The notes under the pieces were generated by a model. The model was given only the letters and a program-made list of their open reading frames with translations, ran no database searches and was not told where the DNA came from. Shown piece after piece: positions 19,987 through 63,039 of a stretch of DNA of 64,000 nt. How positions within the stretch are numbered: position 1 is the stretch's first letter; every line of letters starts with the position of its first letter. The position numbers were made by a program, and so were the translations under genes. This DNA is from Candidatus Obscuribacteraceae bacterium (lineage in GTDB: Bacteria > Cyanobacteriota > Vampirovibrionia > Obscuribacterales > Obscuribacteraceae), in the NCBI GenBank assembly GCA_044226015.1, contig JBGAHS010000003.1:32001-96000 (forward strand), in the 5' to 3' direction.

Positions 19987-22791
19987 ATGGCAGATGAGAG
20001 CAAGAATGGTTCGGACAAACAAGGCGAAACGCCTGAGAAGATTCCCGAAAAATCCTTAACCCCTGAAGGCAGTCCCCAGCAGCAAAAGGCTGACAGTGAC
20101 GCACAAAGATTAGCCCAGCAAAGGCAACCTGGCACTGTAACCTTACCCGAAATTACAATAGCTGGCACCGATGCAAAGGCTGGCAACGCCAAGCCGACCG
20201 CAAGTGAAGGACAAACTTCTTGGTCAACTCAAGACCTCAGCAGAGTTCTCAAATATCTCGATTCAATCAAACCCGCTGCAGAAAGAACCCTGGGCGTTAC
20301 TGACAGCGCCGGCGATCGGGCCCAAAGAAACACCTATATTCTTTTAAGAGACAAAATTCTGCCCGAATTGAAATCACAAGGCAAAATCGGCGCGGAATGG
20401 CAACTTTTTCCAACCACTGCGCAATCACCTGCGGACAAAGTGGGAGCAGACTACTTGCTGGTTAATACCAAAACCGGCGCATTCCACTTATTAGATGCCA
20501 CGCTGAAAGAAAACAAGGGCAACGTATTCGCATTGCGCGCTGGTGGCGTCATTGTCGTAGACAACCGTTTGTTTGATGCACTCAGCGCATTGAAAACCAC
20601 AGACGGTGGAGCTATTGGAGAGGCTGCCACTCAGTTGAAAACTGACATAAGCCAACAAATTACATCGCTGACAAAAAGTAATACACCTTTCAAGCTAGGT
20701 CCTGATGGTACGCCGATGCCTAGTGTAACCATCGTGTCAGAGCAAAAAGCGAAATCAGAAATAACCAAACTTTCTGAATGGGCAAAGGCAGAAGCTAAGG
20801 CAAGCACAGGAAATGAAGCACGACTCTTCAATGAAATGTCCAGCGTTGTAGAAGGGTCCTTCAGACATCTCGATAAAGCTGCAAGAGAGATTGCCAGTCC
20901 GAAGCTAGCAGAATCAGTAAGTAGAGCTACAGATGCAGAAATAGCTAAATACGCCTTAGCAAAATACAAAGGTGAAAAATACGACGCGGCGAAGCCAGGC
21001 GCAGCTGCAAATAATCTCCACGTTCTCAAAGACGGCAAGCTTGTTATGCCCGTGCAATCAGGGGAGATTCATGTTGGCGGAAATTTTGCCGACCATCTTG
21101 AAAAAAGTTGGGGGTCATTACAGAGCGAGAAAAAGCTACTTAGCCTGCTCTCAAACAAAGACCTCAAGGCTATGGGAGCGGACACCACAAGCTTCGAAAA
21201 GCTGAGTGGAGAAGAAAGGGCGGAAGCTATCTACAAAGCCTATAGATCTCAACGTCAGTTCCAGAATGAAGCCAACAAACTGAGAAATACCCTGCACTCC
21301 GAACAACAAGTGATCAAGGCTGGAGGTGCGCTTGGCACCGGAGCACCTGTCATAGCCGAGAACATAATGGCAAGACTGCGGGCACGTCCTGATAGTACGC
21401 TTCTCGGAATTGCACCTAAGCCAGAAGCCGCAGCCGCACCAGATAAGCCAGCTATCAAAACCGCATTTTCAGATATCGACAAAACAGCAAGCAAACCAAT
21501 CGAGGCATTGGCTGAATTCAGCGGATTGGAAAAACACGATAACAAAGTCAGCTCTAACCTCAGCACCAGCATGGAATTGCTACTCGCCGATCAGCAAGAG
21601 CGTCGCGCCAAAGACCCTACAGCGAAAGATCTCTGGACACAAGTGGAATTCGACCGTTTCACCAAGCTTAACGAGGCATATTCAAACCCTTCGCATCCAG
21701 ACCATGCGGACAGTGTAAAACAACTACATGACCTTCTGAACAAAAAAGTAGAAATGGCTGAGTCCGAGGCTGAGAAAGCACAAGCAGTGCTTCAAGGAAA
21801 TCCTATTTTCGAGAAGCTCACAGATGAAACTCGCATGAAAGAAGCAGTGAAGCAATTAAGTGATAGGACTAAAACCCTTCCTGCTCAAGACAAAGATGAA
21901 TATCTAGCCAAACAGATTAAAGAGGCTCTTCGCAAACAAACTGGTGCTGCGACTTTATCCGAATTGCCAGAGTCGGTTCGTCAGCTCAAAGTAAAGATGG
22001 TGGAAGGATCTGCCAATTCCGTAAGAGTGAATGCAAGCGGAGTACTAGAGATTCCCTCGAAATTACTGAGGGATGATCCCAAAAAAGCTGTTGCAGAAGC
22101 ATACGCACATGCTTCTGGAATGAGTATGCTGGACCTACTAAGACAAGAAGGCAATGAGCATCTAACAATGCGATCGCTAAAGCCAATGCTGTCCAAAATT
22201 GCAGAGCGCGCAGAAACAGTAGTTACAGCTCAGTTAGAGTCAGCGAAAACTAATGCGCATGTGCCGATCAATTCCGAAGCAGCTTCCACTGAGCGCAAAA
22301 CAGAAATACCTAAAGAGAGAGCCATAGTAACAAGTTGGAACGGCGAGATTCTCAACTTTGGCAACGAGAAATTCAATGTAAGCTCTGAACTTGCGAAACT
22401 AAATAGAGAACGCGCTGAGAAAATCAAAGCGCTCGAAACTGAGTTTGAAAAGGCCCAAAAGACAGCTGAATCAAAACAAACGGACGAAAACAAACAAAGA
22501 GTTACAAGCTTAGAGCAACAGCTAATTGCAGAAAGACAGAACTCAAAAATTGCAACCGATTTGCATCAATCGCTGACTGGCTCGCGCGGAGCCGAAGCTC
22601 AAAGCAAGGCGCAGACGCTTATAAAACAAGCGGCGGAAAGAGCTGCAGAACAGCATATGAGCAAGAGAGGGGGCTCCGCTACATTCAGCCGTGCCTCAGC
22701 GATTGCATTATTGCTGTCAACTGCAACAGCGCTTTACGTGCAAGGCAACGGACCTGCCCGCGCCGATGTTTACGAGACCCACATTCGTTAA
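19987..22791 (+). CDS. Large hypothetical protein; possible PD-(D/E)xK nuclease-like segment, coiled coil and C-terminal hydrophobic helix
   Basis: 934-aa ORF with ADKVGADYLLVN...FHLLDATLKENK and terminal ASAIALLLSTATALYV. Confidence 0.75.
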   Translation: MADESKNGSDKQGETPEKIPEKSLTPEGSPQQQKADSDAQRLAQQRQPGTVTLPEITIAGTDAKAGNAKPTASEGQTSWSTQDLSRVLKYLDSIKPAAERTLGVTDSAGDRAQRNTYILLRDKILPELKSQGKIGAEWQLFPTTAQSPADKVGADYLLVNTKTGAFHLLDATLKENKGNVFALRAGGVIVVDNRLFDALSALKTTDGGAIGEAATQLKTDISQQITSLTKSNTPFKLGPDGTPMPSVTIVSEQKAKSEITKLSEWAKAEAKASTGNEARLFNEMSSVVEGSFRHLDKAAREIASPKLAESVSRATDAEIAKYALAKYKGEKYDAAKPGAAANNLHVLKDGKLVMPVQSGEIHVGGNFADHLEKSWGSLQSEKKLLSLLSNKDLKAMGADTTSFEKLSGEERAEAIYKAYRSQRQFQNEANKLRNTLHSEQQVIKAGGALGTGAPVIAENIMARLRARPDSTLLGIAPKPEAAAAPDKPAIKTAFSDIDKTASKPIEALAEFSGLEKHDNKVSSNLSTSMELLLADQQERRAKDPTAKDLWTQVEFDRFTKLNEAYSNPSHPDHADSVKQLHDLLNKKVEMAESEAEKAQAVLQGNPIFEKLTDETRMKEAVKQLSDRTKTLPAQDKDEYLAKQIKEALRKQTGAATLSELPESVRQLKVKMVEGSANSVRVNASGVLEIPSKLLRDDPKKAVAEAYAHASGMSMLDLLRQEGNEHLTMRSLKPMLSKIAERAETVVTAQLESAKTNAHVPINSEAASTERKTEIPKERAIVTSWNGEILNFGNEKFNVSSELAKLNRERAEKIKALETEFEKAQKTAESKQTDENKQRVTSLEQQLIAERQNSKIATDLHQSLTGSRGAEAQSKAQTLIKQAAERAAEQHMSKRGGSATFSRASAIALLLSTATALYVQGNGPARADVYETHIR

Positions 22792-22861
22792 ACCACTAAC
22801 GTATGTAAGTTACAAATCACACGAATTCCTGCTCACAAGATCCTTGATCCGACAGCAGAGC

Positions 22862-23147
22862 AACTCCACATATCAAGCAGATTTTTCCTGCACGGCAGCT
22901 TTCAATCCCCTTAAATCGGTACCGATTTAAGTTCGTTTTTTGATTGCCAGATCGGTACCGATCTCAGTTTGAATTTTGCACTGTGAACTCGACCAATTTC
23001 TGACAGCGGAGTAACTCCACATATCAAGCAGATTCTTCCTCACGACTGCTTTCAACCCATTAAATCGGTACAGATTTCAGTTCGTTTTTTGATTGCCAGA
23101 TCGGTACCGATCTCAGATTGATTTCGAATTACCAGATCGGACCGATC
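22862..23147. repeat. Two ~150-bp direct repeats, each carrying ATCGGTACCGAT palindrome cores
   Basis: AACTCCACATATCAAGCAGATT at 22862 and 23013; 22-bp palindrome CTTAAATCGGTACCGATTTAAG at 22910; GATCGGTACCGATC at 22950 and 23099. Confidence 0.85.
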
Positions 23148-23297
23148 AAGATTGATGCAACGTTGCATATCAAGCGGATTCGATAAACAGCGGATCTCAA
23201 GCGATCGCGATCATTTAAGGTTTATTTCGCGCCAAAGTCGCGTCAAGTGATCGAAAAGTACAAACAGTCCATTCGTAACTTCTTTATCGATCAATGC

Positions 23298-24086: not shown

Positions 24087-24216
24087 CCCAGGATTCCCCC
24101 TTCTATTTCGTGAATAGTATATTCCGATTTGCAGATATTTTGCCTCAGGGATCATTTGCATCACCTCTTTCAATACGCGAAGAGCAGCGTTTGACGCTGC
24201 TCTTCATGATTTCTTC

Positions 24217-24353
24217 GAGTATGTTTCGACAGAATCCGGATTCTGAACCGAAGGTACGGGGACAATGCAATTCCGCGCTTTTCATCGAAGTATGGTTCGA
24301 CGAAATACCGGATTCTGAGCCGAAGGTACGGGGTCGATGCAATTCCGCGCTTT
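24217..24353. repeat. Two ~71-bp imperfect direct repeats
   Basis: GTATGNTTCGAC...CCGGATTCTGARCCGAAGGTACGGGG..ATGCAATTCCGCGCTTT twice, just past the aminopeptidase stop. Confidence 0.85.
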
Positions 24354-24381
24354 GCACCAAAGTAAAAGTGCGGACTCGCAG

Positions 24382-30876: not shown

Positions 30877-30911
30877 TCGAATTCATCTTGCAAATCACGG
30901 ACTCATGTTGC

Positions 30912-42263: not shown

Positions 42264-44579
42264 CTACTCATGCTTGAACACTTGTCGATTTTCCAACTCG
42301 TTAAAGATGGAATTGGCTCGCACTCTTTTGCTTCTTTCCATAAATTGCTGAGTCATGCTTCCACCATCAAGTAATTTCAATTCCTTACCTGGTGTCGGAT
42401 TTGGAGTCACAGTCTCTACGCTCGGCGCCGGTTTCTCAACAACCTTAGGTAAACCGCTAGGCTTGGTCAAATAATCATGCGCGTAGTCATAAACATAACT
42501 ACCGCCAATTTCCGAACCCTCACCCAGCAGTTTATCAAATACAGTTGTAGTCGCAATCCCACCAGCGAGTTGCAAGCCAAAGCGAGCTGGCGCATATGGC
42601 ACCCAGCTAGTAGCCTTCTGTATGATTCCTCTTCCAATTTCAAAACTCAGATAATCACCAGCCACACGAGTGAGCTTACCTACACCGTAGGAGTTTCCTT
42701 GCTTGAAGGCAGAAGGCAAATCATTTATGTAAGCAAACGCTCCTAGTGCAGCTAGCCCTGTTCCTGCCCGCAAAGTTATGCCGCCAAGGCGAGTTTCACT
42801 CAGCTGAAGTGCTTTTGCAGCACCAGGAAGTCCCCATTCACTTAGATATCCTAACCCACCACGGACTGCCCAAGGAGCAGTCGCACTCAAACCAAAGCCC
42901 AATCCTTTTGCAGACAATGCCGTGTACGTAGGCTTGATTGTGTCCTTCCATGCCAATCCATCAAGGGCGTGCTTTGCTTTATCCTTGAAAAAATCCAGTC
43001 CGGGCATTTGACTCATTGCGCTCCATATCTCACTCACCGGCAATTTTGAGCGTTGCCCTGGAAGTCCCGTAAAATCATTAGAGGATCCCCATTGATTATC
43101 TACGCTTACCTCTTGCTTTTCAGGATCATAATCCGTGATCGTTACCACATGAGGACCAAAGCCCTTTCCATCCCCAAAGGGCTTTTTAGCAGCATCCACT
43201 GAAATGATCACAGGAAAAGCATTCTGCTGCTTCAACTCAAGCAAGCGCTCTTTAAAGCCGCCAAGTGTCATCAATTTTGTGATGCCTTCACTTTCGGAAG
43301 GGTAAACCCATCTTTCAACTCCAAAATTCTTTGAGGGGCGCCCAGTAATCTGTTGATTAATTTCAGAGACTCCACGCACATCCAACCATGGATGATCGGC
43401 ATCCACAGTGGCAAAACTTTGCTTCTGGGGCGGATTCACCGAAGTATCGAGCAAGAACTCACCATGTTCATCCTGAGCATATTGAATTTTTCCCTTACCG
43501 GGAGTTTTGCCTCCCGGCAGCGTCTCACGCCTATTCCAATATATGTTGATCGCTGTCAGCTGAAAAATCTGACTTGCATAGTTTCTTGAACCATCCCAAT
43601 TCGGATACGTTTTCGCCTCACCGTCAGGATCAAGATTCAGGGGTTTCACAACTGTTCCGTCTGCACTTACAAATTGCCCCCCGACAGCTACATCAGCTAC
43701 AACCTTGGATGCTAACCCAGGCTCTTGTGCAAACAAACGCACCTGCATCGTTGTCACATTGCAAGTATTGTGCCCACCCTGATCAATGCTGGTTGGGACA
43801 GCGACGTTTGCAAGCAGGGAGTGGGCCAAAACGGCTCTATGACCATGTTCAAGCTTCAACGAAGGATCCAAAACGCGCCCTAGCTGCAGATAAGTGTTAA
43901 TTGCTTCAGAATCAGAAAGTCCTTTGCTACGCTCGTCGAACTTTGTCAATTTTTCAGCGAAGTCTTTGCGTCGCCCTGGATCGGTAATAGCCATATCAGC
44001 ATGACTCAATATGCGCTGCCGAAGCTCAGCCTTTAACTGCGCAAACTCCTCCGGTCGATCGCCTTTGATTTCCTTGAGCAAATCTGATGTCGAACTTCCA
44101 GCAGTAATTTCTCTTATTCCACTATCAAAAAGAGCGTCACCTAATTTTGGCTTGAGGAACGATTGAATTTCAGCCTGCTTGATTGAACGTTCGTTATCTG
44201 CGGTAGCTACTGAAAGCTCCATGCGAAGCGTGTTAACAGTTGTTCTATCAGCAGGAGAAAGTTGAGAGAGTACACGGTTTTTCTCTCCACTCCGAACGAC
44301 CTCAGGTTTTGTATCCTCAGTCTTTGGCGGCGCAATTTCCTTTTCTGCAATCTTTGTGGCAGCCTTTGCATTTCTCTCTTCCACCACTCCTTGCAGTGGC
44401 GAAGGAGGGGTCCAATCTTTTGTGAGTTCTTGCCCGCGTTTGAGCAAAGCTTCAGGAAGTTTTGATTCCATCTGCAGACTACGCGGAATACCAATCGCAT
44501 CTTGAATCAGCTCTGATGAGCTCGAATCACCGGCACTGCTTTTTTCCTTCGATGAATCAGCAGCTCTAAAATCGGGCAT
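42264..44579 (-). CDS. Putative papain-like cysteine peptidase with Gly-rich hydrophobic C-terminal helices (candidate effector)
   Basis: IDQGGHNTC (oxyanion Q, catalytic C), GPHVVTITDYD, VDNQWG; hydrophobic Gly/Ala helices near the C-terminus; GGGGAG RBS. Confidence 0.75.
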   Translation of the reverse strand: MPDFRAADSSKEKSSAGDSSSSELIQDAIGIPRSLQMESKLPEALLKRGQELTKDWTPPSPLQGVVEERNAKAATKIAEKEIAPPKTEDTKPEVVRSGEKNRVLSQLSPADRTTVNTLRMELSVATADNERSIKQAEIQSFLKPKLGDALFDSGIREITAGSSTSDLLKEIKGDRPEEFAQLKAELRQRILSHADMAITDPGRRKDFAEKLTKFDERSKGLSDSEAINTYLQLGRVLDPSLKLEHGHRAVLAHSLLANVAVPTSIDQGGHNTCNVTTMQVRLFAQEPGLASKVVADVAVGGQFVSADGTVVKPLNLDPDGEAKTYPNWDGSRNYASQIFQLTAINIYWNRRETLPGGKTPGKGKIQYAQDEHGEFLLDTSVNPPQKQSFATVDADHPWLDVRGVSEINQQITGRPSKNFGVERWVYPSESEGITKLMTLGGFKERLLELKQQNAFPVIISVDAAKKPFGDGKGFGPHVVTITDYDPEKQEVSVDNQWGSSNDFTGLPGQRSKLPVSEIWSAMSQMPGLDFFKDKAKHALDGLAWKDTIKPTYTALSAKGLGFGLSATAPWAVRGGLGYLSEWGLPGAAKALQLSETRLGGITLRAGTGLAALGAFAYINDLPSAFKQGNSYGVGKLTRVAGDYLSFEIGRGIIQKATSWVPYAPARFGLQLAGGIATTTVFDKLLGEGSEIGGSYVYDYAHDYLTKPSGLPKVVEKPAPSVETVTPNPTPGKELKLLDGGSMTQQFMERSKRVRANSIFNELENRQVFKHE

Positions 44580-47093: not shown

Positions 47094-49010
47094 ATGGGCG
47101 TAACGCAAGAAATCGATCACAGGGCCAGCAAGGACAGTGGTGCCGAAAAGCTCACTGGCAATTCCGATGCTAATGGAATTGCTCTAGACGCTGGAAAAAT
47201 TTGGATGACTCTGGCTGCCGCGCACGACCATGGTCAAAAATCGCCTCGAATACCTGGCTTACCCGATCTTGATGTTCACAGCAAGGCCGAATCAAATCCC
47301 GACAACAAGGGTCACCACACCGTCGCAGAGGAGATGCTGGACGACCTGAACACTCTTATGCAAACCAATGGCAAGGTTGATGTTCTGAATCAGCAAGCAG
47401 CCAAATCGCTCGACGGAACTCACAAAAACGGAGACCTACCAGTAATACAAACCGATAAGTTGCCGCCCGGCAAAATCGGAATCATCATGACTAAAAACCC
47501 TGATGGTCACACGTACTACACACCATTCATTTCTGCTGGCGGCGACGCACAAGCACGACCAGACTCATCAATAAAAATCAACGACTCAGCTGCACGAGAG
47601 CTAAAAATTGATGAGGCACTGAAGAAAGGTCAAAATCCCAAGCTTGATATTTTTGCTTTCAATTTAGAAGATGACGAAAGGCACGGCATTATCATGCCGC
47701 GCACGAAGGACGACTTGCATGAGTTAGTGCTGGAGAAGCTCCATAATCTTGCCGAGGATGAAAGAGAGAGAATTGCTCTTGAGCGAGTTAAGGAACAACA
47801 AACACGTCCTGAAGCACCAAAGCCAGATCCTGAATTTGGATATCGCAGAACCGAAAGAAGCCCAGAAGAACTGCGCAAAATATCCGAAGACTTCGCAAAA
47901 CAAGCACGGGCATTCATGGATGCAGCTGAACCAGCTGGCATTCAAGAGCGAATGAAAGCCGCAGAACAACAAGCACAAAAGGAAATCACACAGTATCAAG
48001 GCGAACTGAACAAAAAGGCAGCGGAGGAAACTCGCGCAGTTAGAGAAGCCTCACGCCTTGAAAAACAGGCTCAACAAATACTAAATCCTGAAAGCGACAA
48101 GGCCAAGAAGCTGGCGCCACGGGTTTCAGCAGCTCAGGAAAAAGCTGAGGCTGCCACCACTGCCAAACAACTCGCGGATTACAATTTATCGTATGCACAG
48201 CAGGAATTGAGAATTTCCAAAGACGAAGCTCTATTCACCAGACACATGCAAGCCAAGGCAAGTGCAGCGGCGATCATGTCATTGAACCCCGATATGGAAG
48301 GGGCGCTCAAAGGTCACAGATTCGTGTTGAACGCCGGCCACTATCCAGAAGATCCGAAATTTCCGGGATTCGAATATGACGGCACAGCAGAATGGAAGCT
48401 CAACCACGAATCAGAAGATGTGGCCGGCGCTATGGTCAAAATGGCCGGTGGAGCAGTTAAGTTAGTCAACCAAGCAGATCTCAAAGACCGCACCATGACT
48501 GGACTTGCCAATGCAATCAAAGCTGCGAAGCCAGAGGTAGCAGTGGGAATTCACCACGATGATGGCGAAAATAGAGAAGCCGACATCATGAAAGGCACAC
48601 TCACACTTGAGTGCGGTAAAACTACAGGAGCATGGAGCACAGACTTTGCCAACGCAGCGCACATGGCAAAACTGAACTATGCAGGTCTGCCGGAAAAGGT
48701 CAACAAGAACGGCGTTCCTGTTGGAATTCGTGAGCAATGCGGCAGAGGCGTACAAGGCAGAAATGTTGGCGCTCCATTCATTCTCGATGAACAGCTTTCA
48801 ACACAGAAGGACATGTGGAAGCTGGCTCGCGATCCGAAAGCAAATGCACAAATTCAATTTGCAAGAGTGGTGGCATTCTACGAATACGTAAACAAAATGC
48901 CCAGATACAAAACGACTCCTGACACTGCACAAGAATACAAAGACAAGATCTGGAGCAAAACCACAGTAGACGATGTCTTCAAGCGTCACCCCAAAGTTGG
49001 TGACTGGTAA
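47094..49010 (+). CDS. Protein with a central coiled coil and a C-terminal N-acetylmuramoyl-L-alanine amidase (Amidase_3)-like domain
   Basis: FVLNAGH, AEWKLN, VAVGIHHD, PFILDE match the H/E/H zinc ligands and catalytic E; AAGGA RBS; no signal peptide. Confidence 0.75.
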   Translation: MGVTQEIDHRASKDSGAEKLTGNSDANGIALDAGKIWMTLAAAHDHGQKSPRIPGLPDLDVHSKAESNPDNKGHHTVAEEMLDDLNTLMQTNGKVDVLNQQAAKSLDGTHKNGDLPVIQTDKLPPGKIGIIMTKNPDGHTYYTPFISAGGDAQARPDSSIKINDSAARELKIDEALKKGQNPKLDIFAFNLEDDERHGIIMPRTKDDLHELVLEKLHNLAEDERERIALERVKEQQTRPEAPKPDPEFGYRRTERSPEELRKISEDFAKQARAFMDAAEPAGIQERMKAAEQQAQKEITQYQGELNKKAAEETRAVREASRLEKQAQQILNPESDKAKKLAPRVSAAQEKAEAATTAKQLADYNLSYAQQELRISKDEALFTRHMQAKASAAAIMSLNPDMEGALKGHRFVLNAGHYPEDPKFPGFEYDGTAEWKLNHESEDVAGAMVKMAGGAVKLVNQADLKDRTMTGLANAIKAAKPEVAVGIHHDDGENREADIMKGTLTLECGKTTGAWSTDFANAAHMAKLNYAGLPEKVNKNGVPVGIREQCGRGVQGRNVGAPFILDEQLSTQKDMWKLARDPKANAQIQFARVVAFYEYVNKMPRYKTTPDTAQEYKDKIWSKTTVDDVFKRHPKVGDW

Positions 49011-51813: not shown

Positions 51814-52392
51814 ATGGCGCTGCTAAATATTCACACGAGAGAAATCGCTTGCAAGATTGTCTACTATGGCACCGGACTCGGTGGCAAAACAACCAACCTC
51901 AAATACATTTACAGTCAATTATCTCCTGTTACACGAACTGAAATGATAAGCCTCGCTACAGAAACTGAACGAACCCTATTCTTTGATTACATGGGGCTCG
52001 ACCTGGGTCAAGTTCAGGGATTCAAAACCAAATTTTCTCTTTATACTGTGCCGGGTCAGGTTGAGTATAACTCAAGTAGAAAACTACTCTTGAATGGCGT
52101 TGATGGAATTATATTTGTTGCAGACTCAGAACGAATACGCCAAAGAGAAAACATCGATTCTATCAAAAACATGAAAGAAAACATGCTCTCAGTCGGCATT
52201 ATGCCCGAATCAATTCCTATTGTCTTGCAATACAACAAGCGTGACCTTGCTCAAGTCATGAGCCTCGACGAACTGGAAAATGACCTGAATCCAAACAATG
52301 CCCCTAGTTTTGAAGCTGTAGCTTCCGATGGACTCGGCGTTTTCGCAACCCTACGACAAATAAGCAAATTAGTCTTGAACAGGTTACAATGA
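51814..52392 (+). CDS. mglA: MglA-family small Ras-like GTPase
   Basis: KIVYYGTGLGGKTTNL, TETERTLFFD, YTVPGQVEY, GVDGIIFVADS, QYNKRDL, EAVA; GAGGA RBS. Confidence 0.92.
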   Translation: MALLNIHTREIACKIVYYGTGLGGKTTNLKYIYSQLSPVTRTEMISLATETERTLFFDYMGLDLGQVQGFKTKFSLYTVPGQVEYNSSRKLLLNGVDGIIFVADSERIRQRENIDSIKNMKENMLSVGIMPESIPIVLQYNKRDLAQVMSLDELENDLNPNNAPSFEAVASDGLGVFATLRQISKLVLNRLQ

Positions 52393-53143: not shown

Positions 53144-53188
53144 AGCGCAGCAACAGCTGCTGGACTTTCTGATTCTGAAATGACACAG

Positions 53189-54421
53189 CTAAGAATTTGA
53201 TGGCATAAACGCAATCAAATGCCTGCTGGAACTTTGCTCCTGAGCACATGGCAAAGTCGCCCGCCAATTGTTCAACTGCTGATTCCTCACAGCTGCATTG
53301 CCTGTTCCGATTCCCAAGGAACGGAAGAAGTTTCGCGCAGTTGCAACCTCACACTCCAGGTCACAAACATCTTTTCCATCGAACCGGAAGTAAAAACTCA
53401 TTTGCGCGGCAATCGGTGTCAATAAAGCATTGTCACCATGCTTCTTAATCGTCTTTGAAAGCTTCAGTTTGGAAATCGGATCACTGGCAACCCAGGGAGA
53501 AATAAAAATGGATGCGTGAGCACTCGGAATATCAGAAAGCGCTGCAGATAGCCAGGAAAAGCTTCTCGTTGCCGGCAGCTGATCCACATTGATAGTGATC
53601 GCCCTGCGCTCATTTATTTGCATGCACCGCTCTGTAGAACGCAATACCTTATCGCGGAAAGATGGTTCCCAACCAAGAACTCCCACACTTCTCCAGTCTT
53701 TGTTCAGCTGAGAGCGATTGCCACACTTTCCAAACTCTTCTGAAATCAGCTGACGAACTTCACGCGCATTCAGAATTTTGGGCGTGACACCCAGCGTGAT
53801 CAGACGCTCTATAACTCCGTCAAGCACGCGTTTTACTTGAATCAAAGGGGGCAATTCATCTTTGTCCACAGAATTGTCTGTATTCAACTTTGTGACGACG
53901 ATATAGAGTTCAGACCGCTGCTGCCCAGAATCCGCTTCTGGAAAAATCAGTTGAAACCTGGCTTTTTCAAATCTTGCCAAATCCGCAAAGAGCATTTCCA
54001 ATAAAAGCGCTTGTGCATTTGTAGAAATACGGTGCGGAAGAGTGCACTTCAGAATGCGCTGCAGCTCGCCACCTCGTGCATGAATAATGCCATCTAAGTT
54101 GTCTTGCGGATCCTTTCCGCCAACATAGTCGAGTCGCAATCCAGCAATTTCGCTTGCGTTCTTCGGTGCAGCCATTAGCTCTCGTCGAGGAAATAAGCGC
54201 GAGAAAAGCAGCGGCGGCTGACGCCGAAAGAGTCGAGCCAGAAGGATGCTGTATGTGAAAAGAGATGACCCAAGAACGAGCCCTGCGGCCCAACTGTGCA
54301 ATAGCTGAGCACTCAAAAGCCCAAACGGTACACTCAGGGCAACAGCAAAACTGCCCAAAGCAAAAGAATCCATCTGGGGCTGACGGAGTGTTTTCTTCTC
54401 AGCCTGTTTTAGAATAAGCAT
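53189..54421 (-). CDS. Hypothetical membrane protein, weakly reminiscent of a VirB4/TraC N-terminal region without ATPase
   Basis: Two N-terminal TM helices; C-terminal QQLNNWRATLP; no Walker A motif. Confidence 0.6.
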   Translation of the reverse strand: MLILKQAEKKTLRQPQMDSFALGSFAVALSVPFGLLSAQLLHSWAAGLVLGSSLFTYSILLARLFRRQPPLLFSRLFPRRELMAAPKNASEIAGLRLDYVGGKDPQDNLDGIIHARGGELQRILKCTLPHRISTNAQALLLEMLFADLARFEKARFQLIFPEADSGQQRSELYIVVTKLNTDNSVDKDELPPLIQVKRVLDGVIERLITLGVTPKILNAREVRQLISEEFGKCGNRSQLNKDWRSVGVLGWEPSFRDKVLRSTERCMQINERRAITINVDQLPATRSFSWLSAALSDIPSAHASIFISPWVASDPISKLKLSKTIKKHGDNALLTPIAAQMSFYFRFDGKDVCDLECEVATARNFFRSLGIGTGNAAVRNQQLNNWRATLPCAQEQSSSRHLIAFMPSNS

Positions 54422-55032
54422 CAAACGATTCCCTGCAACCGAGATCCTAGCAACAAAAGTTGCCCACCATATACGCCTATCTCGAAGGTACTTTGTATAT
54501 AGAAAATGTCGATACGGGTTTTTCCCCCAAATAGAAACGAGCCAATATCCACAGTCCTTTGCGGACTTAACACTTGTCACATCTTCCGACGACACAGGTC
54601 AGCCAAAAGTGCCTCAAGGTTACGCGAAGTTACGAAGCGTCCACAGCCGCGAAGTCTGGATGGAACTCTTGGGTCTTACATTTTCAGCTTGATTTGATCG
54701 TAGACACCCACTAAATGTCGTAAGTAAACCATCTTGCAAAACCAAAAAATAGTGATAAAAAACAATCACAGACAAGTTTTGGGCAGAAACCAGTGGGGCA
54801 ACAGCGAGACTGCAATGCACCACATCCAGTACCACCTAATTTCAGGCAGAAAGACTTGATTCCCCGTACAAACAATACTGATCACTTCACCTAAAAACAA
54901 TATCACCCTAAAACCGGCTTCCACTCGCCATGCTACGTGATTTCACCCCACAAAAATCACGCTAAACTCACGCAAAAAAAAATAGTTTCGACTCATCAAG
55001 AAAGGTCCCAATTCTTCTACAGGAGCCATCCG

Positions 55033-55617
55033 ATGTCGGACAACATAACAAGACCAGCAAGATTCGATGAAGAGCAAAAAATGAACAAAGCACAAGACAC
55101 CTTCATTTACGAAGCCATCACGTACATGAAGTCTGGCTATCCCATGGAAAAAGGTCAGGGAGTAGTAAGCCTAAACAGTACTGGCGACCTTGAGATAAAA
55201 GGACTAAACGCCGACAAAAGCATAATAGATTGGGACGTGAAACTATCAGGCACCATTAAAGGCACATGGCCCGAGTTTGAACTAGTTACAAACTCGAACG
55301 TTGCCAAAAACTATTCCATCGTTCACAAAGAAAACGTCAACTACAAAACTGGCACAAGCCAGGAAGAATATTTTTTCACAGGAAGAAAAGACAAAGGAGA
55401 AATGAGCGGCTCGTGTCAATCGCTTGACGATGGCAGCAAAGTCTGTGACCTCAAATTTACCGGCGGAACAGCACACGTCGAGCAGTCCGCGGCGAAGAAT
55501 GGTACAGTCGAATCCACAATAGGCGTCAAAACAAAAGAAGGCGAGCAGTCAATCAATTTGACTTACACAACATCAAAGGACATCGCGACCTATTCATACG
55601 AAAAGTCCAAAAAGTAG
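55033..55617 (+). CDS. Hypothetical beta-rich protein (194 aa); paralog of 1..207
   Basis: AGGAG RBS, downstream terminator, gap-free similarity to the ORF at the window start. Confidence 0.8.
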   Translation: MSDNITRPARFDEEQKMNKAQDTFIYEAITYMKSGYPMEKGQGVVSLNSTGDLEIKGLNADKSIIDWDVKLSGTIKGTWPEFELVTNSNVAKNYSIVHKENVNYKTGTSQEEYFFTGRKDKGEMSGSCQSLDDGSKVCDLKFTGGTAHVEQSAAKNGTVESTIGVKTKEGEQSINLTYTTSKDIATYSYEKSKK

Positions 55618-55639
55618 TCATCCAAATCGAAACTAGATC

Positions 55640-55677
55640 AAGAAATAGGGAGGGAGACCCCCCTATTTCTTTTTTTT
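55640..55677 (+). terminator. Intrinsic terminator
   Basis: AAGAAATAGGG...CCCTATTTCTT followed by a T run. Confidence 0.85.
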
Positions 55678-55876
55678 CGGTCCGACAGAGCACCAAGCGC
55701 CTCAATACATTAACGAGATCCAATCTTTACGCTTTTGCACAGTAAGCTCATCACGCTAAATTCACTCGCCCTGCATAAAAAATGTGACAAACACACATTC
55801 AAGAAGAGTGTTTCTTTCAGCACAAGGCTCGCAATTGCAAACCACAGGCGAGCACACCTCAATGGAGAACTTCTAT

Positions 55877-58861
55877 ATGGCAGGCGGACTAGACAAGGCA
55901 GAGCAGAGACGCGGCACCGACCATGAGGCAAGCGCTCAGGAAGCAAGGACTACCCTACAAGCAGAAAGCATGGAGAGCCGCTCGGGCAGCCGAGTCGGAA
56001 GCGATCAGGAAGCTGTAGTGCCATTAGATAAATTTGACATCAAGGTAACCCCAGCAGCGGACGGCACCGGCGTTTTAGACCTGAAACACACCAGCGGAAA
56101 AAATGCGTCACTAGTGGAAAAAATGAGTGTCGCCGGACAGTTGCTACAGGGAGCCGAGTACGCCGACCTCAAAGCAATTGTCGTACCCTATCGCACCGAT
56201 GCACTCGTCGTAGATAGGTCAAGCAACCCAACAGAACAAATAAGTCAGTTCAAAGGAATTGAACAGCGTCGCGAACAGCTCAAACCCGAAAAACAAATAG
56301 GAAAAGCTGATCAAATGAACATTCGACTCGAAAATGGAGTCGCAGAAATTAGCTATACAGGAAGTAAACCGGAAGCCGCTCTGAGATTTGCATTACGCGA
56401 ACCAAACGCAGTTAGATTGAATGTAAACGGCGTTGATATGGGATTGGTAGAACCGCTGGAAAAACGACTTGGACATAAACCGTCCAAACAAGAATTAAAG
56501 GAAGCTCTAGCGCAGCTCACCTCCGCAAAGAATGAGAGACCCGAGAGTGCTCCCGCAGCAGAGAAAGCCGCAGCTCCAGACATCGCTCCCGCACCAGAGA
56601 AAGACGCAGCTCCAGACATCGCTGCAGCACCAGAGAAAGCTGCAGCACCAGACATCGCTCCCGCACCAGAGAAAGCTGTAGCTCCAGACATCGCTCCCGC
56701 ACCAGATAAAGCCGCAGCTCCAGACATCGCTCCCGCACCAGATAAAGCTGCAGCACCAGACATCGCTCCCGCACCCGATAAAGCTGCAGCACCAGAAAGT
56801 GCTCCGGCAAAAGACAAAGCCGAAGAGAAAGCTCCACGTGCAAAGAGAGCAGACAAGGCTTCTGCCGCAAAGGAATCCACAAGCGAAACAACAGCGGACG
56901 CTGAAAAACCACCAGCTAGAAAAGCTAGGGCAGCAGAAAAATCGAAGCAAGCGGAGAAACCTGGCACCGGTGAAGAAGCACCAACAGAAGAGACCACTGT
57001 AAGAAAACGAAGCAGGCAGGGTCGCGGAAAGTCAGCTGAATCCACTTCAGGAAATGACGAGACCGCAAAAGAATCCAAGGCAGCACGTCAACGAGCACCA
57101 GAGAATGCGATCGCATCCGGCAAGACCGCGCCACCTCTTGCAATTGATGGCGCCGAACCTAAAGCAAGTAGACGCCGAACAAGAGCAGCTGCGCCAGCAA
57201 CCGAAGCAGCACCGACACCTTCACCTGCAGCGGAATCACCAAGTTTAGCGCTTGCTGGAGCGCCAGAAGCACCGCTTCCTCCAGAAGCAAAAACAACAGA
57301 CACACCGCTTCCAACCAACACCGCAGCAAATGGACCAGAAAGCAAAGCCACCACCGGCGAAACTCCTGCCCAACTTTCAATTGATGGTGCCGACAGTGGC
57401 AAAGCCGTAACTGGAATCATTTTAGGAGCCGAACCAACGCCAAGCGAATTGTTGGAATACTATGAGAAACGAGGAATCGCCCCACCGGAAGTGAAACTTG
57501 TCACCATAGATAGGGCTAGTGCCCCCCCAGAGCCGCACGAGGTAGAACTTTACAGTGAACTTCTCCTCTGGAACGCACCAGATGACCACTTGAAAGAGTC
57601 CGAGAAACAGCCTGAGCAAAAGCCACTAGGTTCGGCAAGCGAGGCACTACCCTCAGTGCTAATAGAGGATCCTTCACACCCCAACGAGCATGACACAGAG
57701 TTAGCAGCGCAAAATCCTCTCCGCTCACAAGACTCTCCTGCACAAGCAGAACCAGCAACCGACAGCAAATCTCAAACGGAAGGAAGCCAGCTAGTTGAAA
57801 CAAATGAACGATCAAGCACAGGAGACAGCATGCCAAATCAGAATAGAGAAAAGAATGCAGCCATCACCGATCGACCAATGACCACTTTCGCTGTGCGAAA
57901 CGAAAAAGTAGTTTTCGCTGACGGCACGGAAGTTCCTGCACGAATAGTCAATATCGAAGGACATGATGGCGAACGACGCTCACACCTTTTCATTGAGGAG
58001 TTTCCCGAGCAGAAGCAAGCAGCGAGTGGCGCTGAGCAACCGGCAGCTGACGCCGTTCAAGCACAAGAGCAATCCGCCAAAGGAGACGCAAAAACACAAG
58101 AAAGCAATGTGGAAAAATCAAGTCCGCAAGCCGAATCATTCCGCCAGGCACTGGGTTATACTCCAGTACAAAATGCAGATGGAACTGTAACGATGAAATT
58201 CGGTGGTGAGTCTGAAATACGTCCACTGGATCGAAAAGGACTGGTTGAGCGTGCCGGAGCAATTGAGGCGGAACTTTGGAGACGCCCAGTTAATGCTGAG
58301 TTCGAAGGTGCGACACCGGGGCAAATGCACAAGTACACCTTCAACCCACCACAAGAGCAAGCCGGTCCAAGATTTACATTAGGTGGAGTTCCAGTTGAGA
58401 TAATCACTCCGCCATTAGCGAGACCAGGTGTTTCCGATGAAACAGCGGCGATTCAACAAAGAGAATTCGTAGAACAGGTGATGAATCATCGAACACAAGA
58501 AGGTACAAACGAACCGGGGCAAGAAGTGCCTGCAATTAAAGAGGTTCCAGAATCAGCACAGCCACGCGAACGAAAAGCAGTCGCACCAAGCATTGTTACT
58601 CTAATGCGTGGCACTCCAGTTGAGTACCTGGCTCCCGAGATACAGGGACCATACGCTGACTCTGCAATTGCTCGTCCGAAAAATGCAGCAGAAATCGAAA
58701 GCAATATTGCAATGTACAGTGTGCACGAAACAGCACCTAGAGGATACGCCGAGCTGAAAGCTGAAGGCAAGAGAGCAATCTCAGCTGCAAAGGATAGAAT
58801 ATCAGCGCTCATGCTAGCCGCGTTCACGGCGATCGCGAAAAGCACTCAATACTCGCCTTAA
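55877..58861 (+). CDS. Large low-complexity (Ala/Pro/Glu-rich) hypothetical protein
   Basis: ~995-aa ORF; GGAG 9 nt before ATG at 55877; mostly disordered, with 13-aa repeats. Confidence 0.75.
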   Translation: MAGGLDKAEQRRGTDHEASAQEARTTLQAESMESRSGSRVGSDQEAVVPLDKFDIKVTPAADGTGVLDLKHTSGKNASLVEKMSVAGQLLQGAEYADLKAIVVPYRTDALVVDRSSNPTEQISQFKGIEQRREQLKPEKQIGKADQMNIRLENGVAEISYTGSKPEAALRFALREPNAVRLNVNGVDMGLVEPLEKRLGHKPSKQELKEALAQLTSAKNERPESAPAAEKAAAPDIAPAPEKDAAPDIAAAPEKAAAPDIAPAPEKAVAPDIAPAPDKAAAPDIAPAPDKAAAPDIAPAPDKAAAPESAPAKDKAEEKAPRAKRADKASAAKESTSETTADAEKPPARKARAAEKSKQAEKPGTGEEAPTEETTVRKRSRQGRGKSAESTSGNDETAKESKAARQRAPENAIASGKTAPPLAIDGAEPKASRRRTRAAAPATEAAPTPSPAAESPSLALAGAPEAPLPPEAKTTDTPLPTNTAANGPESKATTGETPAQLSIDGADSGKAVTGIILGAEPTPSELLEYYEKRGIAPPEVKLVTIDRASAPPEPHEVELYSELLLWNAPDDHLKESEKQPEQKPLGSASEALPSVLIEDPSHPNEHDTELAAQNPLRSQDSPAQAEPATDSKSQTEGSQLVETNERSSTGDSMPNQNREKNAAITDRPMTTFAVRNEKVVFADGTEVPARIVNIEGHDGERRSHLFIEEFPEQKQAASGAEQPAADAVQAQEQSAKGDAKTQESNVEKSSPQAESFRQALGYTPVQNADGTVTMKFGGESEIRPLDRKGLVERAGAIEAELWRRPVNAEFEGATPGQMHKYTFNPPQEQAGPRFTLGGVPVEIITPPLARPGVSDETAAIQQREFVEQVMNHRTQEGTNEPGQEVPAIKEVPESAQPRERKAVAPSIVTLMRGTPVEYLAPEIQGPYADSAIARPKNAAEIESNIAMYSVHETAPRGYAELKAEGKRAISAAKDRISALMLAAFTAIAKSTQYSP
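56545..56805 (+). repeat. In-frame 39-bp (13 aa) tandem repeat APE/DKAAAPDIAPA, ~6 copies
   Basis: Direct reading of the translation. Confidence 0.9.
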
Positions 58862-58956
58862 TCTCCACTTTGCACAATTAGACAGTCTTTATCTACGCTG
58901 AATTCACAGCCAATGCTTCACTATGAACCCATTGACTGTGATATCAGGACAAGGTT

Positions 58957-61900
58957 ATGGCAGAAAGTCACGACGGTGAAGAGTCTAGAAATCGCTTAAA
59001 GGAAACCTCAAAGCACGATGCTTCCGCAGCACTGCTAGAAGACACATTGCGCACCGATGGAGAGAAGAAAGAACAAAAGGAGAACTCTTCCGATCCTGCT
59101 CCAACCAAGTTGCCCGACGTCGAATTTAGTGACACAGAGAAGCAACTGATTGCAAAACACTACCAAAATGAAATACTTGCGCATTACGAGCAAATCTCCG
59201 ATTGGGAAAAGCAAAAAAGTTCAAGCGGTCCTCGAGAGCAATCCATTTCGCCACGTGCAGATCTGCAAAAAGAACTCGATAACAACACCTGGGGTGTCGC
59301 AAGCGAAAATGCACTAGCCGAATTCGTCGAATGGTTGAGAAAAGACGCTCTGCCCCAAAACTCACGCGAGCTCAAGGCCGCTGGACTCAAAGCTCAAGAC
59401 CAGAACCTCAACGCATTTACCAGTGATTTGAACTTCACAGGTGAGCCGCGAATTCCCAACAAAGCAGAAGTATTCAAAATTGAAACGCTCATTGATATTG
59501 GCAACCGGGCTACTGAGCAGATTCAACAAAATGTACAAGAGCAATCTTACCAGCGCGACCTGAAAAGAATTGGTGCAGGAATTCCAGCGAGCTGGAGTTT
59601 GACAGACGGACAAGACCCAGCAGATTACCGCATTGCACTGCGCCACGGTATTGCCTTCCATGACCGAGTATACTCAGCCGCGCTGATGGCTTATTCTCTC
59701 AACAAACTTGGTGAACATTTCGAACTTCCAGCTGGTGTCGAAGTAACTGAGCAGCAAGGCAAGCTCGATGTAAAAATTGATCTACCTGAGAGATTGAACC
59801 AGCTTAGCTTCGACTCCCGCGTTTCAGGATATAACGCTTGGGTCGATTCTATTAGCAATCGATTGAAAAAGGATGACGCAGCGTTGCGTGCAGCAGGCAG
59901 CAACCCGTTCTTAAACCTCAGCATCAGCAACACAACAATTTCAAAAGAAGTGAATGAAGATGGACAATTTCTATCGAAGCAAGTTCTCCTCGATGATGAT
60001 GGAAAGCTAATTCGTTTCGCCAGCTCAACAGAATCCACCAGGACAGTACAAACCAGTGCAGACATGAGCGCTCATAGATTTAGCGCCTGGCGCACTGAAG
60101 GGTCAAATCCTAACAGTGATGTCATTGCAGAAATTACTGTCCAAGCACAAGAAAGTCGCCCCGGCTATGATCTTCTAAACAAGGACATTGGAGATCCATT
60201 CAAACTAGTTCAAACGCTTAAGGCAGACGACCCTGTTGTGTACAACGGCAAGCTAATAAATGCCAGAGAGCTGCCAGAACTGGAACTGAAAGACAAAGCC
60301 TCGATGGCTGCACAAAAAGCGACGGACATAGGCTGGGATCTCTCAATGTTTGCCAGTGGACTCGGAACACTTGGAAAAATCAGAACCGGAGCCAGCTTCA
60401 TTGCCGAACAAACGGGGAAAGAGCTTGTTTCTGAGTTAGCTACGAAATCTACAGCGAATGGTCTTTCCGGCATGAACCTCGCAGCTGTACACGCAGCCAC
60501 CGAGACGCTGATGGGAGCAGGTGGATTTCTTGCGTCAAATACATGGGGTGAACAAAATGCAAACTGGATAAATTCAATTAGAGGAACATACTTCACAGCC
60601 AACATCTTTGGCTCTGCTGTGTCATCTCGCTTCAACCGCATACTGCACGGCACAGAGGAATTTCAGGCTTCGATTAACAAGACCGCACCAACCTGGTTGA
60701 AGCAAGCCAGCGACTTTTCCGCTATCTCCATGCAGGTATTGACACCACTTTCGGTGGCGCCAATGTTGTACGAAGCAGCAAAGCGCTACCAGGAAAATAA
60801 CAAAGAGCAGAAAGAGAAACACCAACTCAATCCTCTCATTATTGAAAGCAACGCCGCCGCAGGTTTGGATACAGCTGTTTCTCAAAATAGATCAAAAGCT
60901 CAAGTTGGCGAAATGAGCCTTGTCCAACAAAGTGCAATTCTCCAAGAAACACTGAATCATACAGAGCACCAATCAGACATAATGAATGCTCTATCCAACG
61001 CAGGGCGCCACACACCGCTGCGCTTGCTAGATAATTTGTATCAAGAGAAAATCAAATTAGAACAAGCACAAGAAAATGCAAACACAAACATATGGAACGA
61101 AAAAGCTAACTATTTTGGAAATAGCTATGACGACGTTCTAAAATCAATTGCTAAGTTCACTAAAGAGAATTCCGATGCCCAAGCAAAATCCGCATCAGCC
61201 CTGACGTATTTTTTCGCAAAGCAACTAGAAAACTCAACCGACAAAGCTCTCAGCTTCAACGCACAACTTGCACAGATCGACAACTTCAGATCAAAAATTG
61301 ACGAGCACAAAAATGACGCTGAAACAATTGAATTCAAACTGAATCTTGACCGCCTGGAGAATGAATCGCTAACTGAATTAGTGAAATACGAGTCAAAGAG
61401 ACACAACACGGCTCAGCAACTCAATCAAAACTTGCAAGCCATCCGCTCAGATGCTGTGCTCGCCGGAAAAACTGCAGAAAGCGTTTTAACTAATGCACTC
61501 GAAACACCAATTAACGATAGCGACAAAGACGACAGCATCTCAACCAGAGTCAACGCTGCCGAAACACTGCTCTTGCTAGGTAACAATGACACGGAATTGA
61601 GAGAAAGAGTAAGCAAAGCTCTTTCAGACTCAGTCAAGCTTGCAACAGCAGAACAGCTAATCCGAATAATTGATGTTACCAAAGCTGAGAACCTATCAGA
61701 TTTCACCGCAAACACTGATACTCAAACAAACATCTTAAACAGATTCCCATCCGCTGATGAAGCATCGAACTCCCCTCGAGCGCAAGCGCTCACAATAGAA
61801 ATTGCCAACCTGTACCCAAAATTCACAAACGAGCTCAAGGGTGAATTGCAATCACGGTTGATTAGCATCCTGGAGCACCAGTCATACAGCATAGGTTTAT

Positions 61901-63039
61901 CCAAGCTACAAAACCACGTTGCTGAAATAGCAGCTCAAGAGAAAATGACCATGCTGATTCCATCACTTGAAAAACTATCCGCGAACGACACTATTCCCCC
62001 ACAAACACGCGAAGCAGCAAGAAATAGCTTGCAAATTCTCAAAGAAATTACGCCCCAGACCATCGATACCAACAGCAGCGAAACTACGTTCAGCAGCCAG
62101 CTCGCCGAACAAAACAACGCAGAAACATCAAACAAAAATGAAACCATAACAGAAGGCTCGAAGCAACTAGCGCAAATCGAAGAGATTTTTCCACGACTGA
62201 AAACATTTAAGAATGAAGAAAGAGATGAGTTTCTAAAATCAAACGACCTTTCACTACTCATCCATGACGAATTCATAAAAGAAGCTCAACGCCGCGTGCA
62301 AAGCCGCTGGGGCAAGAAGAGCATGTTGGGCTTCGAAGCCAAAGAAGATCCACAAGTCACAATGCGGGCTCTACAAACAGAAAGAGAGTTTCAGTTTAAG
62401 CGCCTTGTTGACCGTGTAAAAAGCGCACCACTAGTCTCGGACGAATCTACAAAAACCCAAGTGGAATGCGCGAAACTGACCCTAGCCGAGATAGCAACAA
62501 ATGCGGGGCGACCAATCGAATCAGAACGAAAAGAATACATTCTCGCGGTGAATCATGATGCGGGTCAAATCGCAACATATTATTTCAATGAGTCAGCACT
62601 GGGTGAGCGAAATTGGCACAATGAAGCCGCTGAAGCACTAGCACAGTCAGCAGCAGCCATGCCACAACAGTTCAGCTTTGACGCCCACATATTGCATTCG
62701 CTTCTTTCTTCGAAAACCAATCTGAACGCAAACTCAATGTCCTCCATCTATACAGCATGGAACAAGATCTCCGGAAAAGGCGACGCTTACGGCGCAAGGT
62801 CAATTGACAAAGCACTAGTCAGAACAACCCTGCAAAATGCACTGGAATCCATCGATTCCTCCGCGTCAAAACTGCAAGCAGACCTGAGCAATGACGAGGA
62901 AGCGACAGCACACGCGCAAAGCATTTATTCCAGGATAGAACTGGCTGAAAGACGCCAACAGCAACATAGAGAACTCGAAGCTTTCAACAAGTTGCAAGCG
63001 CAAATCGTCGCCGCCCTTGCTTCACAGGAAAACCGATAG
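58957..63039 (+). CDS. Very large hypothetical protein (1360 aa) with central hydrophobic helices and HEAT-like helical repeats
   Basis: GWDLSMFASGLGTLG...LMGAGGFLA hydrophobic region; TRVNAAETLLLLG and TREAARNSLQIL HEAT-like helices. Confidence 0.8.
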   Translation: MAESHDGEESRNRLKETSKHDASAALLEDTLRTDGEKKEQKENSSDPAPTKLPDVEFSDTEKQLIAKHYQNEILAHYEQISDWEKQKSSSGPREQSISPRADLQKELDNNTWGVASENALAEFVEWLRKDALPQNSRELKAAGLKAQDQNLNAFTSDLNFTGEPRIPNKAEVFKIETLIDIGNRATEQIQQNVQEQSYQRDLKRIGAGIPASWSLTDGQDPADYRIALRHGIAFHDRVYSAALMAYSLNKLGEHFELPAGVEVTEQQGKLDVKIDLPERLNQLSFDSRVSGYNAWVDSISNRLKKDDAALRAAGSNPFLNLSISNTTISKEVNEDGQFLSKQVLLDDDGKLIRFASSTESTRTVQTSADMSAHRFSAWRTEGSNPNSDVIAEITVQAQESRPGYDLLNKDIGDPFKLVQTLKADDPVVYNGKLINARELPELELKDKASMAAQKATDIGWDLSMFASGLGTLGKIRTGASFIAEQTGKELVSELATKSTANGLSGMNLAAVHAATETLMGAGGFLASNTWGEQNANWINSIRGTYFTANIFGSAVSSRFNRILHGTEEFQASINKTAPTWLKQASDFSAISMQVLTPLSVAPMLYEAAKRYQENNKEQKEKHQLNPLIIESNAAAGLDTAVSQNRSKAQVGEMSLVQQSAILQETLNHTEHQSDIMNALSNAGRHTPLRLLDNLYQEKIKLEQAQENANTNIWNEKANYFGNSYDDVLKSIAKFTKENSDAQAKSASALTYFFAKQLENSTDKALSFNAQLAQIDNFRSKIDEHKNDAETIEFKLNLDRLENESLTELVKYESKRHNTAQQLNQNLQAIRSDAVLAGKTAESVLTNALETPINDSDKDDSISTRVNAAETLLLLGNNDTELRERVSKALSDSVKLATAEQLIRIIDVTKAENLSDFTANTDTQTNILNRFPSADEASNSPRAQALTIEIANLYPKFTNELKGELQSRLISILEHQSYSIGLSKLQNHVAEIAAQEKMTMLIPSLEKLSANDTIPPQTREAARNSLQILKEITPQTIDTNSSETTFSSQLAEQNNAETSNKNETITEGSKQLAQIEEIFPRLKTFKNEERDEFLKSNDLSLLIHDEFIKEAQRRVQSRWGKKSMLGFEAKEDPQVTMRALQTEREFQFKRLVDRVKSAPLVSDESTKTQVECAKLTLAEIATNAGRPIESERKEYILAVNHDAGQIATYYFNESALGERNWHNEAAEALAQSAAAMPQQFSFDAHILHSLLSSKTNLNANSMSSIYTAWNKISGKGDAYGARSIDKALVRTTLQNALESIDSSASKLQADLSNDEEATAHAQSIYSRIELAERRQQQHRELEAFNKLQAQIVAALASQENR

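Follow-up and report, generated by a model that had tools for sequence, protein, structure and literature searches.

A two-part N-terminal leader shared by unrelated large proteins of an Obscuribacteraceae bacterium, a candidate Sec-independent export signal

In type III secretion, the beta-motif bound by class I chaperones lies within the first 100 residues of the effector and follows the pattern hydrophobic-(X1-4)-hydrophobic-x-hydrophobic, as given in the available part of PMC6114900. In the Photorhabdus virulence cassette, the available parts of two reports describe an N-terminal peptide that loads unrelated cargo into the delivery machine with the aid of an ATPase (PMC9054023, PMC11495950). 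Among type IV systems, the chromosomal clusters of Patescibacteria are mostly without a relaxase, and the account available names no substrate signal (PMC12102498); the system of Vampirovibrio chlorellavorus, largely plasmid-borne and with a T-type VirB4, has been proposed to deliver hydrolases into prey, again with no signal named in the part available (PMC4451040). Here we describe a shared N-terminal leader, a candidate export signal, on large and otherwise unrelated proteins encoded in a 64,000-nucleotide stretch (the window, G000:C6:32001-96000) of the genome of Candidatus Obscuribacteraceae bacterium (G000), an uncultured and non-photosynthetic cyanobacterial relative in the order Obscuribacterales, and elsewhere in that genome.

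The leader is laid out as a polar acidic arm, a helix of the form S..[RKA]-L..[ED]A, a linker and then LPxLxLxD. It was scored leave-one-out with a two-block model (helix plus LP block) over 5,684 proteins of G000, an 8.19-Mb genome of 13 contigs and 92% completeness, in which a simple script called 6,193 proteins, so that some start sites are wrong. At the cut-off of at least 14, 87 of the 5,684 proteins carried the leader, compared with 9 shuffled N-termini and 5.6 internal segments. The leader is real, beyond chance, and the helix is the commoner of its two elements: the helix starts at a median residue of 28, and a canonical LP motif is found in 29 of the 87 leaders at a median residue of 56, both medians leaning on the priors of the model. 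An earlier note on this DNA had claimed a near-constant position for the LP motif, and this was borne out among 4,220 proteins, in which the strict pattern LP[DEKNSTA][ILVF][DETSQ][ILVF], tuned after examples had been seen, occurred 17 times in residues 51-60 and 0-4 times in each of the other 19 ten-residue bins (Poisson p ~1e-9, corrected for 20 bins). The pattern proposed in that note, LP.[ILVF].[ILVF], was enriched as well, with 116 matches in residues 31-86 vs 72 ± 8 in local shuffles, and in the housekeeping control that it had called for, 1 of 132 conserved core proteins scored at least 14 and 0 of 132 had the strict LP motif. The helix pattern was picked by eye (17 of 38 seeds vs 6.7 ± 2.3 in shuffles) and afterwards tested out of sample; when 5,589 held-out proteins were scanned with the helix alone, a small further excess appeared (18 vs 6 at a score of at least 12). 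Gibbs sampling for the helix, run without guidance, settled on noise.

The same two motifs were seen in at least seven further genera. Two six-frame profile searches, which are blind to gene starts, gave matches outside G000 that lay at the protein N-terminus in 13 of 14 and 18 of 19 cases, together 31 of 33, where the chance of such a position is about 11% per match; several matches are mutual orthologues, and the independent events are therefore fewer than 31. The first search had 16 matches outside G000, two of which were dropped as training rows (one of them, in G016, was not re-examined), and the 19 matches examined in the second are those with loci and outside the training rows. Between orthologues, linkers diverge and alter in length while the motif residues persist. 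A Sec/Tat-like hydrophobic core in the first 45 residues was found in 0 of the 87 leader proteins vs 28% of all proteins, an exclusion that is partly built in, since the composition term of the model disfavours hydrophobic starts; cysteine makes up 0.22% of the leader proteins vs 1.1%. A different short motif, SFKG, showed no enrichment in G000 (0.8% at N-termini vs 0.7% internally; 2 of the 87 leader proteins). A profile search of a 1.84-billion-protein library, for which the leader profile is too short, returned 11 proteins: nine N-terminal matches whose lengths and positions equal those of training proteins, and two repetitive internal ones. The ESM Atlas gave no usable match for the two leaders queried.

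Within the window, the leader or parts of it were assessed in the following proteins, named below by the coordinate of their start.

58957..63039, + strand: 1,360-aa orphan with the full leader (polar residues 1-25; LLEDTL at residues 26-31, 59032-59049; LPDVEF at residues 52-57, 59110-59127)
55877..58861, + strand: 994-aa low-complexity orphan (strong helix LQAESM at residues 27-32, 55955-55972; weak second motif; score 22; no Pfam match)
19987..22791, + strand: 934-aa protein (polar leader; LPEITI at residues 53-58, 20143-20160; no clear helix; score 10.8)
47094..49010, + strand: 638-aa probable N-acetylmuramoyl-L-alanine amidase (LPDLDV at residues 56-61, 47259-47276; score 9.3)
42264..44579, - strand: 771-aa papain-like protein, a doubtful member (Cys 273, His 477 and Asn 495 by motif; helix LIQDAI at residues 24-29; score 7.6)
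4005..5492, - strand: 495-aa S51 peptidase (helix FRLEFF at residues 29-34, 5408-5391; score 4.1; Peptidase_S51 E 7.9e-10)
13429..15402, + strand: 657-aa possible variant member, absent from the earlier note (polar N-terminus; papain-like motifs QGANPTC, GLHAQTV and NNWD; score 7.6; no Pfam match)

The first six are those on which the leader was originally proposed. All ten strings quoted for them were located as reported (LPEITI at residue 53, LPDLDV at 56, LPDVEF at 52, LDKFDI at 50, FKPISL at 58 and LPEALL at 41, with the helix strings at residues 20-25), and a hydrophobic signal stretch was present in none of the six, in agreement with the claimed lack of Sec signals. Membership in the family is strong for ORFs 58957 and 55877, extends to the LP part only for ORFs 19987 and 47094 and to the helix only for ORF 5492, and is doubtful for ORF 44579. 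ORF 58957, with a leave-one-out score of 28 (rank 11 of 5,684), has no Pfam or NCBIfam match, and its first 400 residues were not found in any of the seven other genomes of the genus. In ORF 19987, LP.h.h is kept in 6 of 6 orthologues while its flanks diverge. In ORF 5492, the helix is kept as F.DEYL or FMHEFL in 3 of 3 orthologues and FKPISL, listed earlier as a weaker motif match, in 0 of 3; its paralogues begin with Tat/Sec-like signals instead of the leader. The sole orthologue of ORF 47094 seen (in G004) keeps LPDLDI, and a glucosaminidase-plus-amidase paralogue has a leader score of 28. For ORF 44579, five orthologues score -2 to 7 and several paralogues 11-20.

The cargo assignments of the earlier note fared unevenly. 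The S51 peptidase was confirmed, the amidase is a weak match (Amidase_3 E 0.0035, below the cut-off) and the papain-like peptidase was called by motifs alone; PDB sequence searches with the amidase and papain-like domains gave no relevant match. The proposed membrane-inserting helices were not recovered, as none of the six proteins has a transmembrane helix above the hydropathy cut-off. The nuclease call for ORF 19987 likewise found no support: its domain (first 400 residues; window 20197-21186; related loci L272-L284) gives a confident structure model for which fold searches had no clear match, and nuclease activity remains putative. This domain is present in 72 of 103 genomes of the family, often within giant open frames of 2,000-13,700 aa.

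Genome-wide, the 95 leader proteins with a score of at least 13 fall into 69 unrelated cargo clusters, the largest cargo having 7,753 aa. Among the 82 scanned against Pfam (the four longest truncated to 2,600 aa or almost in full), 22 could be classed, by the analyst's judgement, as ten proteases, three peptidoglycan hydrolases, two nucleases, three Rhs proteins, one deaminase toxin and three ChaN/HopBA1-like proteins, and 47 had no Pfam match, so that the leader points to new enzymes and toxins. At E<=1e-6, classed cargoes number 17 of 82 vs 1 of 82 controls, signal-less proteins of the same loci (p 6e-5), or 5 of 82 controls when all peptidases are counted (p 0.01). The deaminase gene is directly followed by an SMI1/KNR4 immunity-type gene. 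In the M4, M28, S51 and papain-like families, paralogues start with either the leader or a hydrophobic Sec/Tat-like signal, an exchange that is the strongest argument from sequence for the leader acting as a signal. In M4 proteases with the leader, a PPL propeptide motif, presumably of the protealysin type, is preceded by 30-65 additional residues; in the form of G001 that lacks the leader, the motif stands at residue 10. The envelope of the source lineage is diderm (PMC4040986), and the peptidoglycan hydrolases are an argument for export because they have no substrate in a diderm cytoplasm. Taken together, the unrelated cargoes, the exclusion of Sec/Tat signals, the toxin-immunity pair, the family-limited range and a shared operator lend good support to the earlier idea that a hydrolytic or antagonistic arsenal carries a tag specific to the lineage.

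In the long M4 and S53 peptidases (L213, L215-L232; G000:C11:336146-343116), about 170 additional residues, rich in glycine and in part hydrophobic, separate the leader from the protease and may form a further trafficking or membrane domain. A further leader family of about 200-500 aa (L027:2921-3997, L286-L314), with up to ten matches per genome and no Pfam match, has an all-beta C-terminal region with LPTGD...TPNGD.

The shared operator is the top upstream feature of leader genes, a direct repeat TCACG-N4-TTTCAC with an 11-base period, whose spacing presumably resembles OmpR/PhoB boxes. It precedes 15 of 79 leader genes vs 87 of 3,742 others (p 1e-9; best of ten random sets 5e-6). With leave-one-out scoring, the counts are 9 of 79 vs 42 of 5,268 in G000, and in relatives 9 of 63 vs 21 of 2,835, so that the repeat marks a minority of leader genes, about one in eight. 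Among the held-out sites, those that score best lie in front of leader-like genes, some of which encode leader-only proteins of 83 and 93 aa. Three candidates lie in the window, one of them above the cut-off score of 12.

19853..19877, + strand: operator candidate upstream of ORF 19987 (TCACG-N4-TTTCA; 11-base period; score 12.7, from a matrix not trained on this site)
55747..55771, + strand: operator candidate upstream of ORF 55877 (CAC-N8-CAC; leave-one-out score 9.4, below the cut-off)
54953..54977, + strand: operator candidate upstream of a 194-aa orphan at 55033-55617 (score 11.2, below the cut-off)

Leader-only proteins of 73-93 aa (G000:C8:509554-509805, C8:260370-260651 and C10:288095-288346; L342, L346, L351) were observed as well, several of them behind strong operator sites.

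The earlier note had drawn analogies to type III and contractile-injection effectors. The leader resembles a type III effector signal, in the available part of the literature, in its disordered N-terminus followed by a short hydrophobic motif, and LPxLxL (29 of 87 leaders) fits the published beta-motif pattern, which is, as given there, too loose to show kinship; the leader differs in its conserved upstream helix and conserved Pro. The machines were also missing. FlhA/SctV (PF00771) had no match in G000 with the control positive in 4 of 14 genomes, and the chaperone YbjN none with the control positive in 6; CesT gave no match either, its control being silent. Sheath PF04984 and TssC PF05943 had no match in G000 (controls positive in 3 and 1 of 14), nor had the tube protein PF06841, again with a silent control, and EssC/EccC of type VII secretion was not found, PF01580 giving two short matches, one of them VirB4 (WXG100 was not searched). 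The analogies thus do not carry over to this 92% complete genome, and since the type III and injection machines were not found, the leader falls outside these signal classes. The Photorhabdus virulence cassette, alike in its N-terminal loading of unrelated cargo, further differs in that the Obscuribacterales cargoes reach 7,753 aa.

Of the secretion genes whose co-occurrence with the leader the earlier note had proposed to check, a type IV-like system and Tad loci are present in G000, and a type VI or injection sheath was not found; the link of the leader to the type IV-like system is circumstantial. G000 has two Tad loci (labelled by eye without a Pfam scan), type IV pili and two secretins, as well as a type IV-like system of two operons with VirB4, one of which has VirD4, a Replic_Relax gene and DUF2225.

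G000:C10:63035-90085: type IV-like operon (L007, L008)
G000:C1:182285-205260: second type IV-like operon (L005, L006 in part)

The two VirB4 paralogues match PF19044 above the cut-off, and VirD4, with relatives in 80 loci, matches T4SS-DNA_transf (E 2e-15) plus TraG-D_C. Both operons are syntenic in five relatives, and a pilin-like gene of the system shows >80% identity across genera. VirB4-like ATPases occur in 27 of 27 sampled genomes of the order, mostly two each, vs one match each in 3 of 13 genomes of other orders. At the positions of VirB2, VirB3, VirB6 and VirB8 stand conserved membrane proteins of fitting size and order without Pfam or NCBIfam match; no outer-membrane core (VirB7/9/10) was recognised in the operons. 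The model of an operon lipoprotein combines a helical hairpin with an Ig-like domain, its best match being the archaellar FlaF (Z 9.8, rmsd 4.0, 105 aligned residues). One VirB4 of G000 appeared broken by two in-frame stops (L005:18873-18883, G000:C1, second operon); the stops are absent from runs X1, possibly the source, and X2, from another study, whose contigs differ there at five letters, and an assembly error is their probable origin. An RNA run, X5, covered this stretch only in part and gives no information on expression. Genes like TadE and TadG are located within the second operon of G000 (C1:186669-193644, L006) and not in G001 or G021.

Compared with the described type IV systems, that of the Obscuribacterales is, like the Patescibacteria system in the part of its account available (PMC12102498), lineage-wide, chromosomal and kin of monoderm conjugation machinery, monoderm-type models being among the best matches of its VirB4 and VirD4. 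It differs in its core relaxase-like gene, its two VirB4 operons and its large-genome diderm host. It is of the same class as the Vampirovibrio system, for which delivery of hydrolases into prey has been proposed (PMC4451040); the T-type model PF03135 found nothing in G000. The giant Omnitrophota proteins implicated in predation are, from the portion of the report available (10.1101/2023.11.21.568195), a parallel in lifestyle. A literature search, which did not cover subscription journals and supplements, yielded no description of the leader or of the order's type IV-like machine, and a term search in the available text of one review (PMC12857230) found no mention of cyanobacteria.

The best overall explanation, to which we assign a probability of about 0.38, is that the leader is a Sec-independent export signal read by the type IV-like system. 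The first 45-75 residues would then be a sorting leader, independent of Sec and read in the cytoplasm, whose disordered acidic or polar arm would present the short amphipathic helix as the main recognition element, and often the downstream beta-strand motif LPxLxLxD too, to a receptor. The receptor would feed the leader protein to a one-step secretion machine and thus into neighbouring cells or the surroundings, and the leader, sometimes plus the shared operator, would have become attached to many enzymes unrelated to one another. As its reader, the likeliest candidate is the VirD4 coupling protein or the DUF2225 protein, both from the type IV-like system, a machine that may carry proteins as well as DNA. 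That the leader is an export signal is probable, and delivery into other cells is slightly favoured. The type IV-like machine is named as the route because no other one-step machine was found and the range of the leader falls within its own; among the machines found, it alone would be able to cross the inner membrane without Sec and is confined to about the leader's lineage. This route is tentative, and another or an unknown route is nearly as likely.

The leader's range was assessed with the second profile, which had matches in 23 of 76 genomes of the source family (in one only internal). It was not found in 184 genomes of ten other families, which cannot be taken as absence given their smaller genomes and the insensitivity of the search. 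Random protein samples, of little power, gave 1 of 161 at a score of at least 14 in G016, 0 of 178 in G012, 0 of 186 in G028 and 0 of 127 in G030.

Several observations weigh against this explanation. A Replic_Relax relaxase-like gene stands beside VirD4 and is present in 99 of 107 genomes of the order, almost always single-copy, and a core relaxase-like gene points to DNA transfer. In the other family of the order Obscuribacterales, the machine is present and the leader profile matched 0 of 3 genomes. Within the genus, G001 (91% complete) has the leader in 1 of 323 sampled proteins vs 4.9 expected, with its VirB4s intact, and the papain-like family has no match there vs 4-18 in six genus genomes. 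Given the relaxase-like gene and the persistence of the machine where the arsenal is scarce, we can only infer its link to the leader. VirD4 neighbourhoods are not enriched in leaders (8 of 1,098 ORFs score at least 14, four of them VirB4 false positives), and the type IV and Tad genes of G000 lack the operator, all scores being below 10. Known type IV effector signals are mostly C-terminal. Some cargoes look like housekeeping proteins (PfkB, GGDEF). Close co-transcribed downstream genes follow 21 of 87 leader genes vs 2,267 of 5,680 genes overall and are no commoner behind leader genes, so that dedicated immunity genes are the exception.

All the evidence for an export signal applies equally if the leader is read elsewhere, by a Tad or type IV pilus system, by an unrecognised machine or through vesicles or lysis particles, the type IV-like system then being a chromosomal DNA-transfer device. 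This alternative is a serious possibility, though still one we would not bet on: it accords with the core relaxase-like gene, with the two Tad loci, pili and secretins of G000 and with one leader gene that adjoins PilT and TadE-like genes, and the Tad-1 ATPase is commoner in leader-positive genomes (17 of 22, vs 58 of 103 family genomes). Tad-1 was considered as the required machine and rejected, as it was not found in the remaining 5 of the 22, including G003 (91% complete), nor in G016 despite a strong leader protein there. Tad ATPases also occur in many families without leader matches, and pilus systems require Sec or prepilin signals, which the leader proteins do not have.

Less likely, and in our view improbable, is an intracellular role, in which the leader would be a chaperone- or inhibitor-docking site, a degron or a localisation tag that silences hydrolases until stress or lysis. 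Short helix-plus-strand motifs are typical docking elements, the leader-only proteins could be decoys or regulators, and a response-regulator-type operator fits a stress regulon; against this, residence in the cytoplasm is hard to reconcile with peptidoglycan hydrolases, with Rhs proteins and with a toxin encoded next to an immunity-type gene, the same domains carry the leader in some proteins and a Sec/Tat signal in others, and a YbjN-type chaperone was not found in G000. That the leader is a functionless relic, a promoter-plus-5' cassette copied before new genes, would suit the joint occurrence of leader and operator in about one gene in eight and the many young orphans among the cargoes, and is very unlikely in view of motif residues that persist in orthologues while linkers diverge and of both motifs recurring in at least seven other genera.

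On the whole, the earlier interpretation is partly supported. With the leader, the probable exported arsenal of an uncultured family can be listed from sequence alone, and the Obscuribacterales, so far known mainly for their metabolism (PMC4040986), gain a testable lifestyle. Type IV secretion would be an unusual setting for a substrate signal at the N-terminus, and if another machine reads the leader, that machine is one not yet known. The analysis also brings to light a chromosomal type IV-like system that spans the order and includes a relaxase-like gene; this system may serve as a core device for chromosome transfer. A bolder proposal, which we consider doubtful, is that a vertically inherited conjugation-type machine has become a core organelle for both chromosomal DNA transfer and the injection of about 100 leader-selected lytic effectors; if so, a common wastewater, soil and freshwater lineage would consist of unrecognised contact-dependent killers or predators.

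Elsewhere in the window, two adjoining paralogue-like orphans of about 200 aa (15474-16717) lie directly behind ORF 13429 and are possible immunity or accessory genes. A small GTPase, which we take to be MglA-like (51814-52392), lies near a membrane protein (53189-54580) that by eye is like the N-terminal half of a VirB4-type ATPase and has no Pfam match. Tandem-repeat stretches at 12458-13163, 19318-19884, 36319-37144, 50129-50707 and 56353-57078 give rise to overlapping repetitive ORFs, some of them within real genes.

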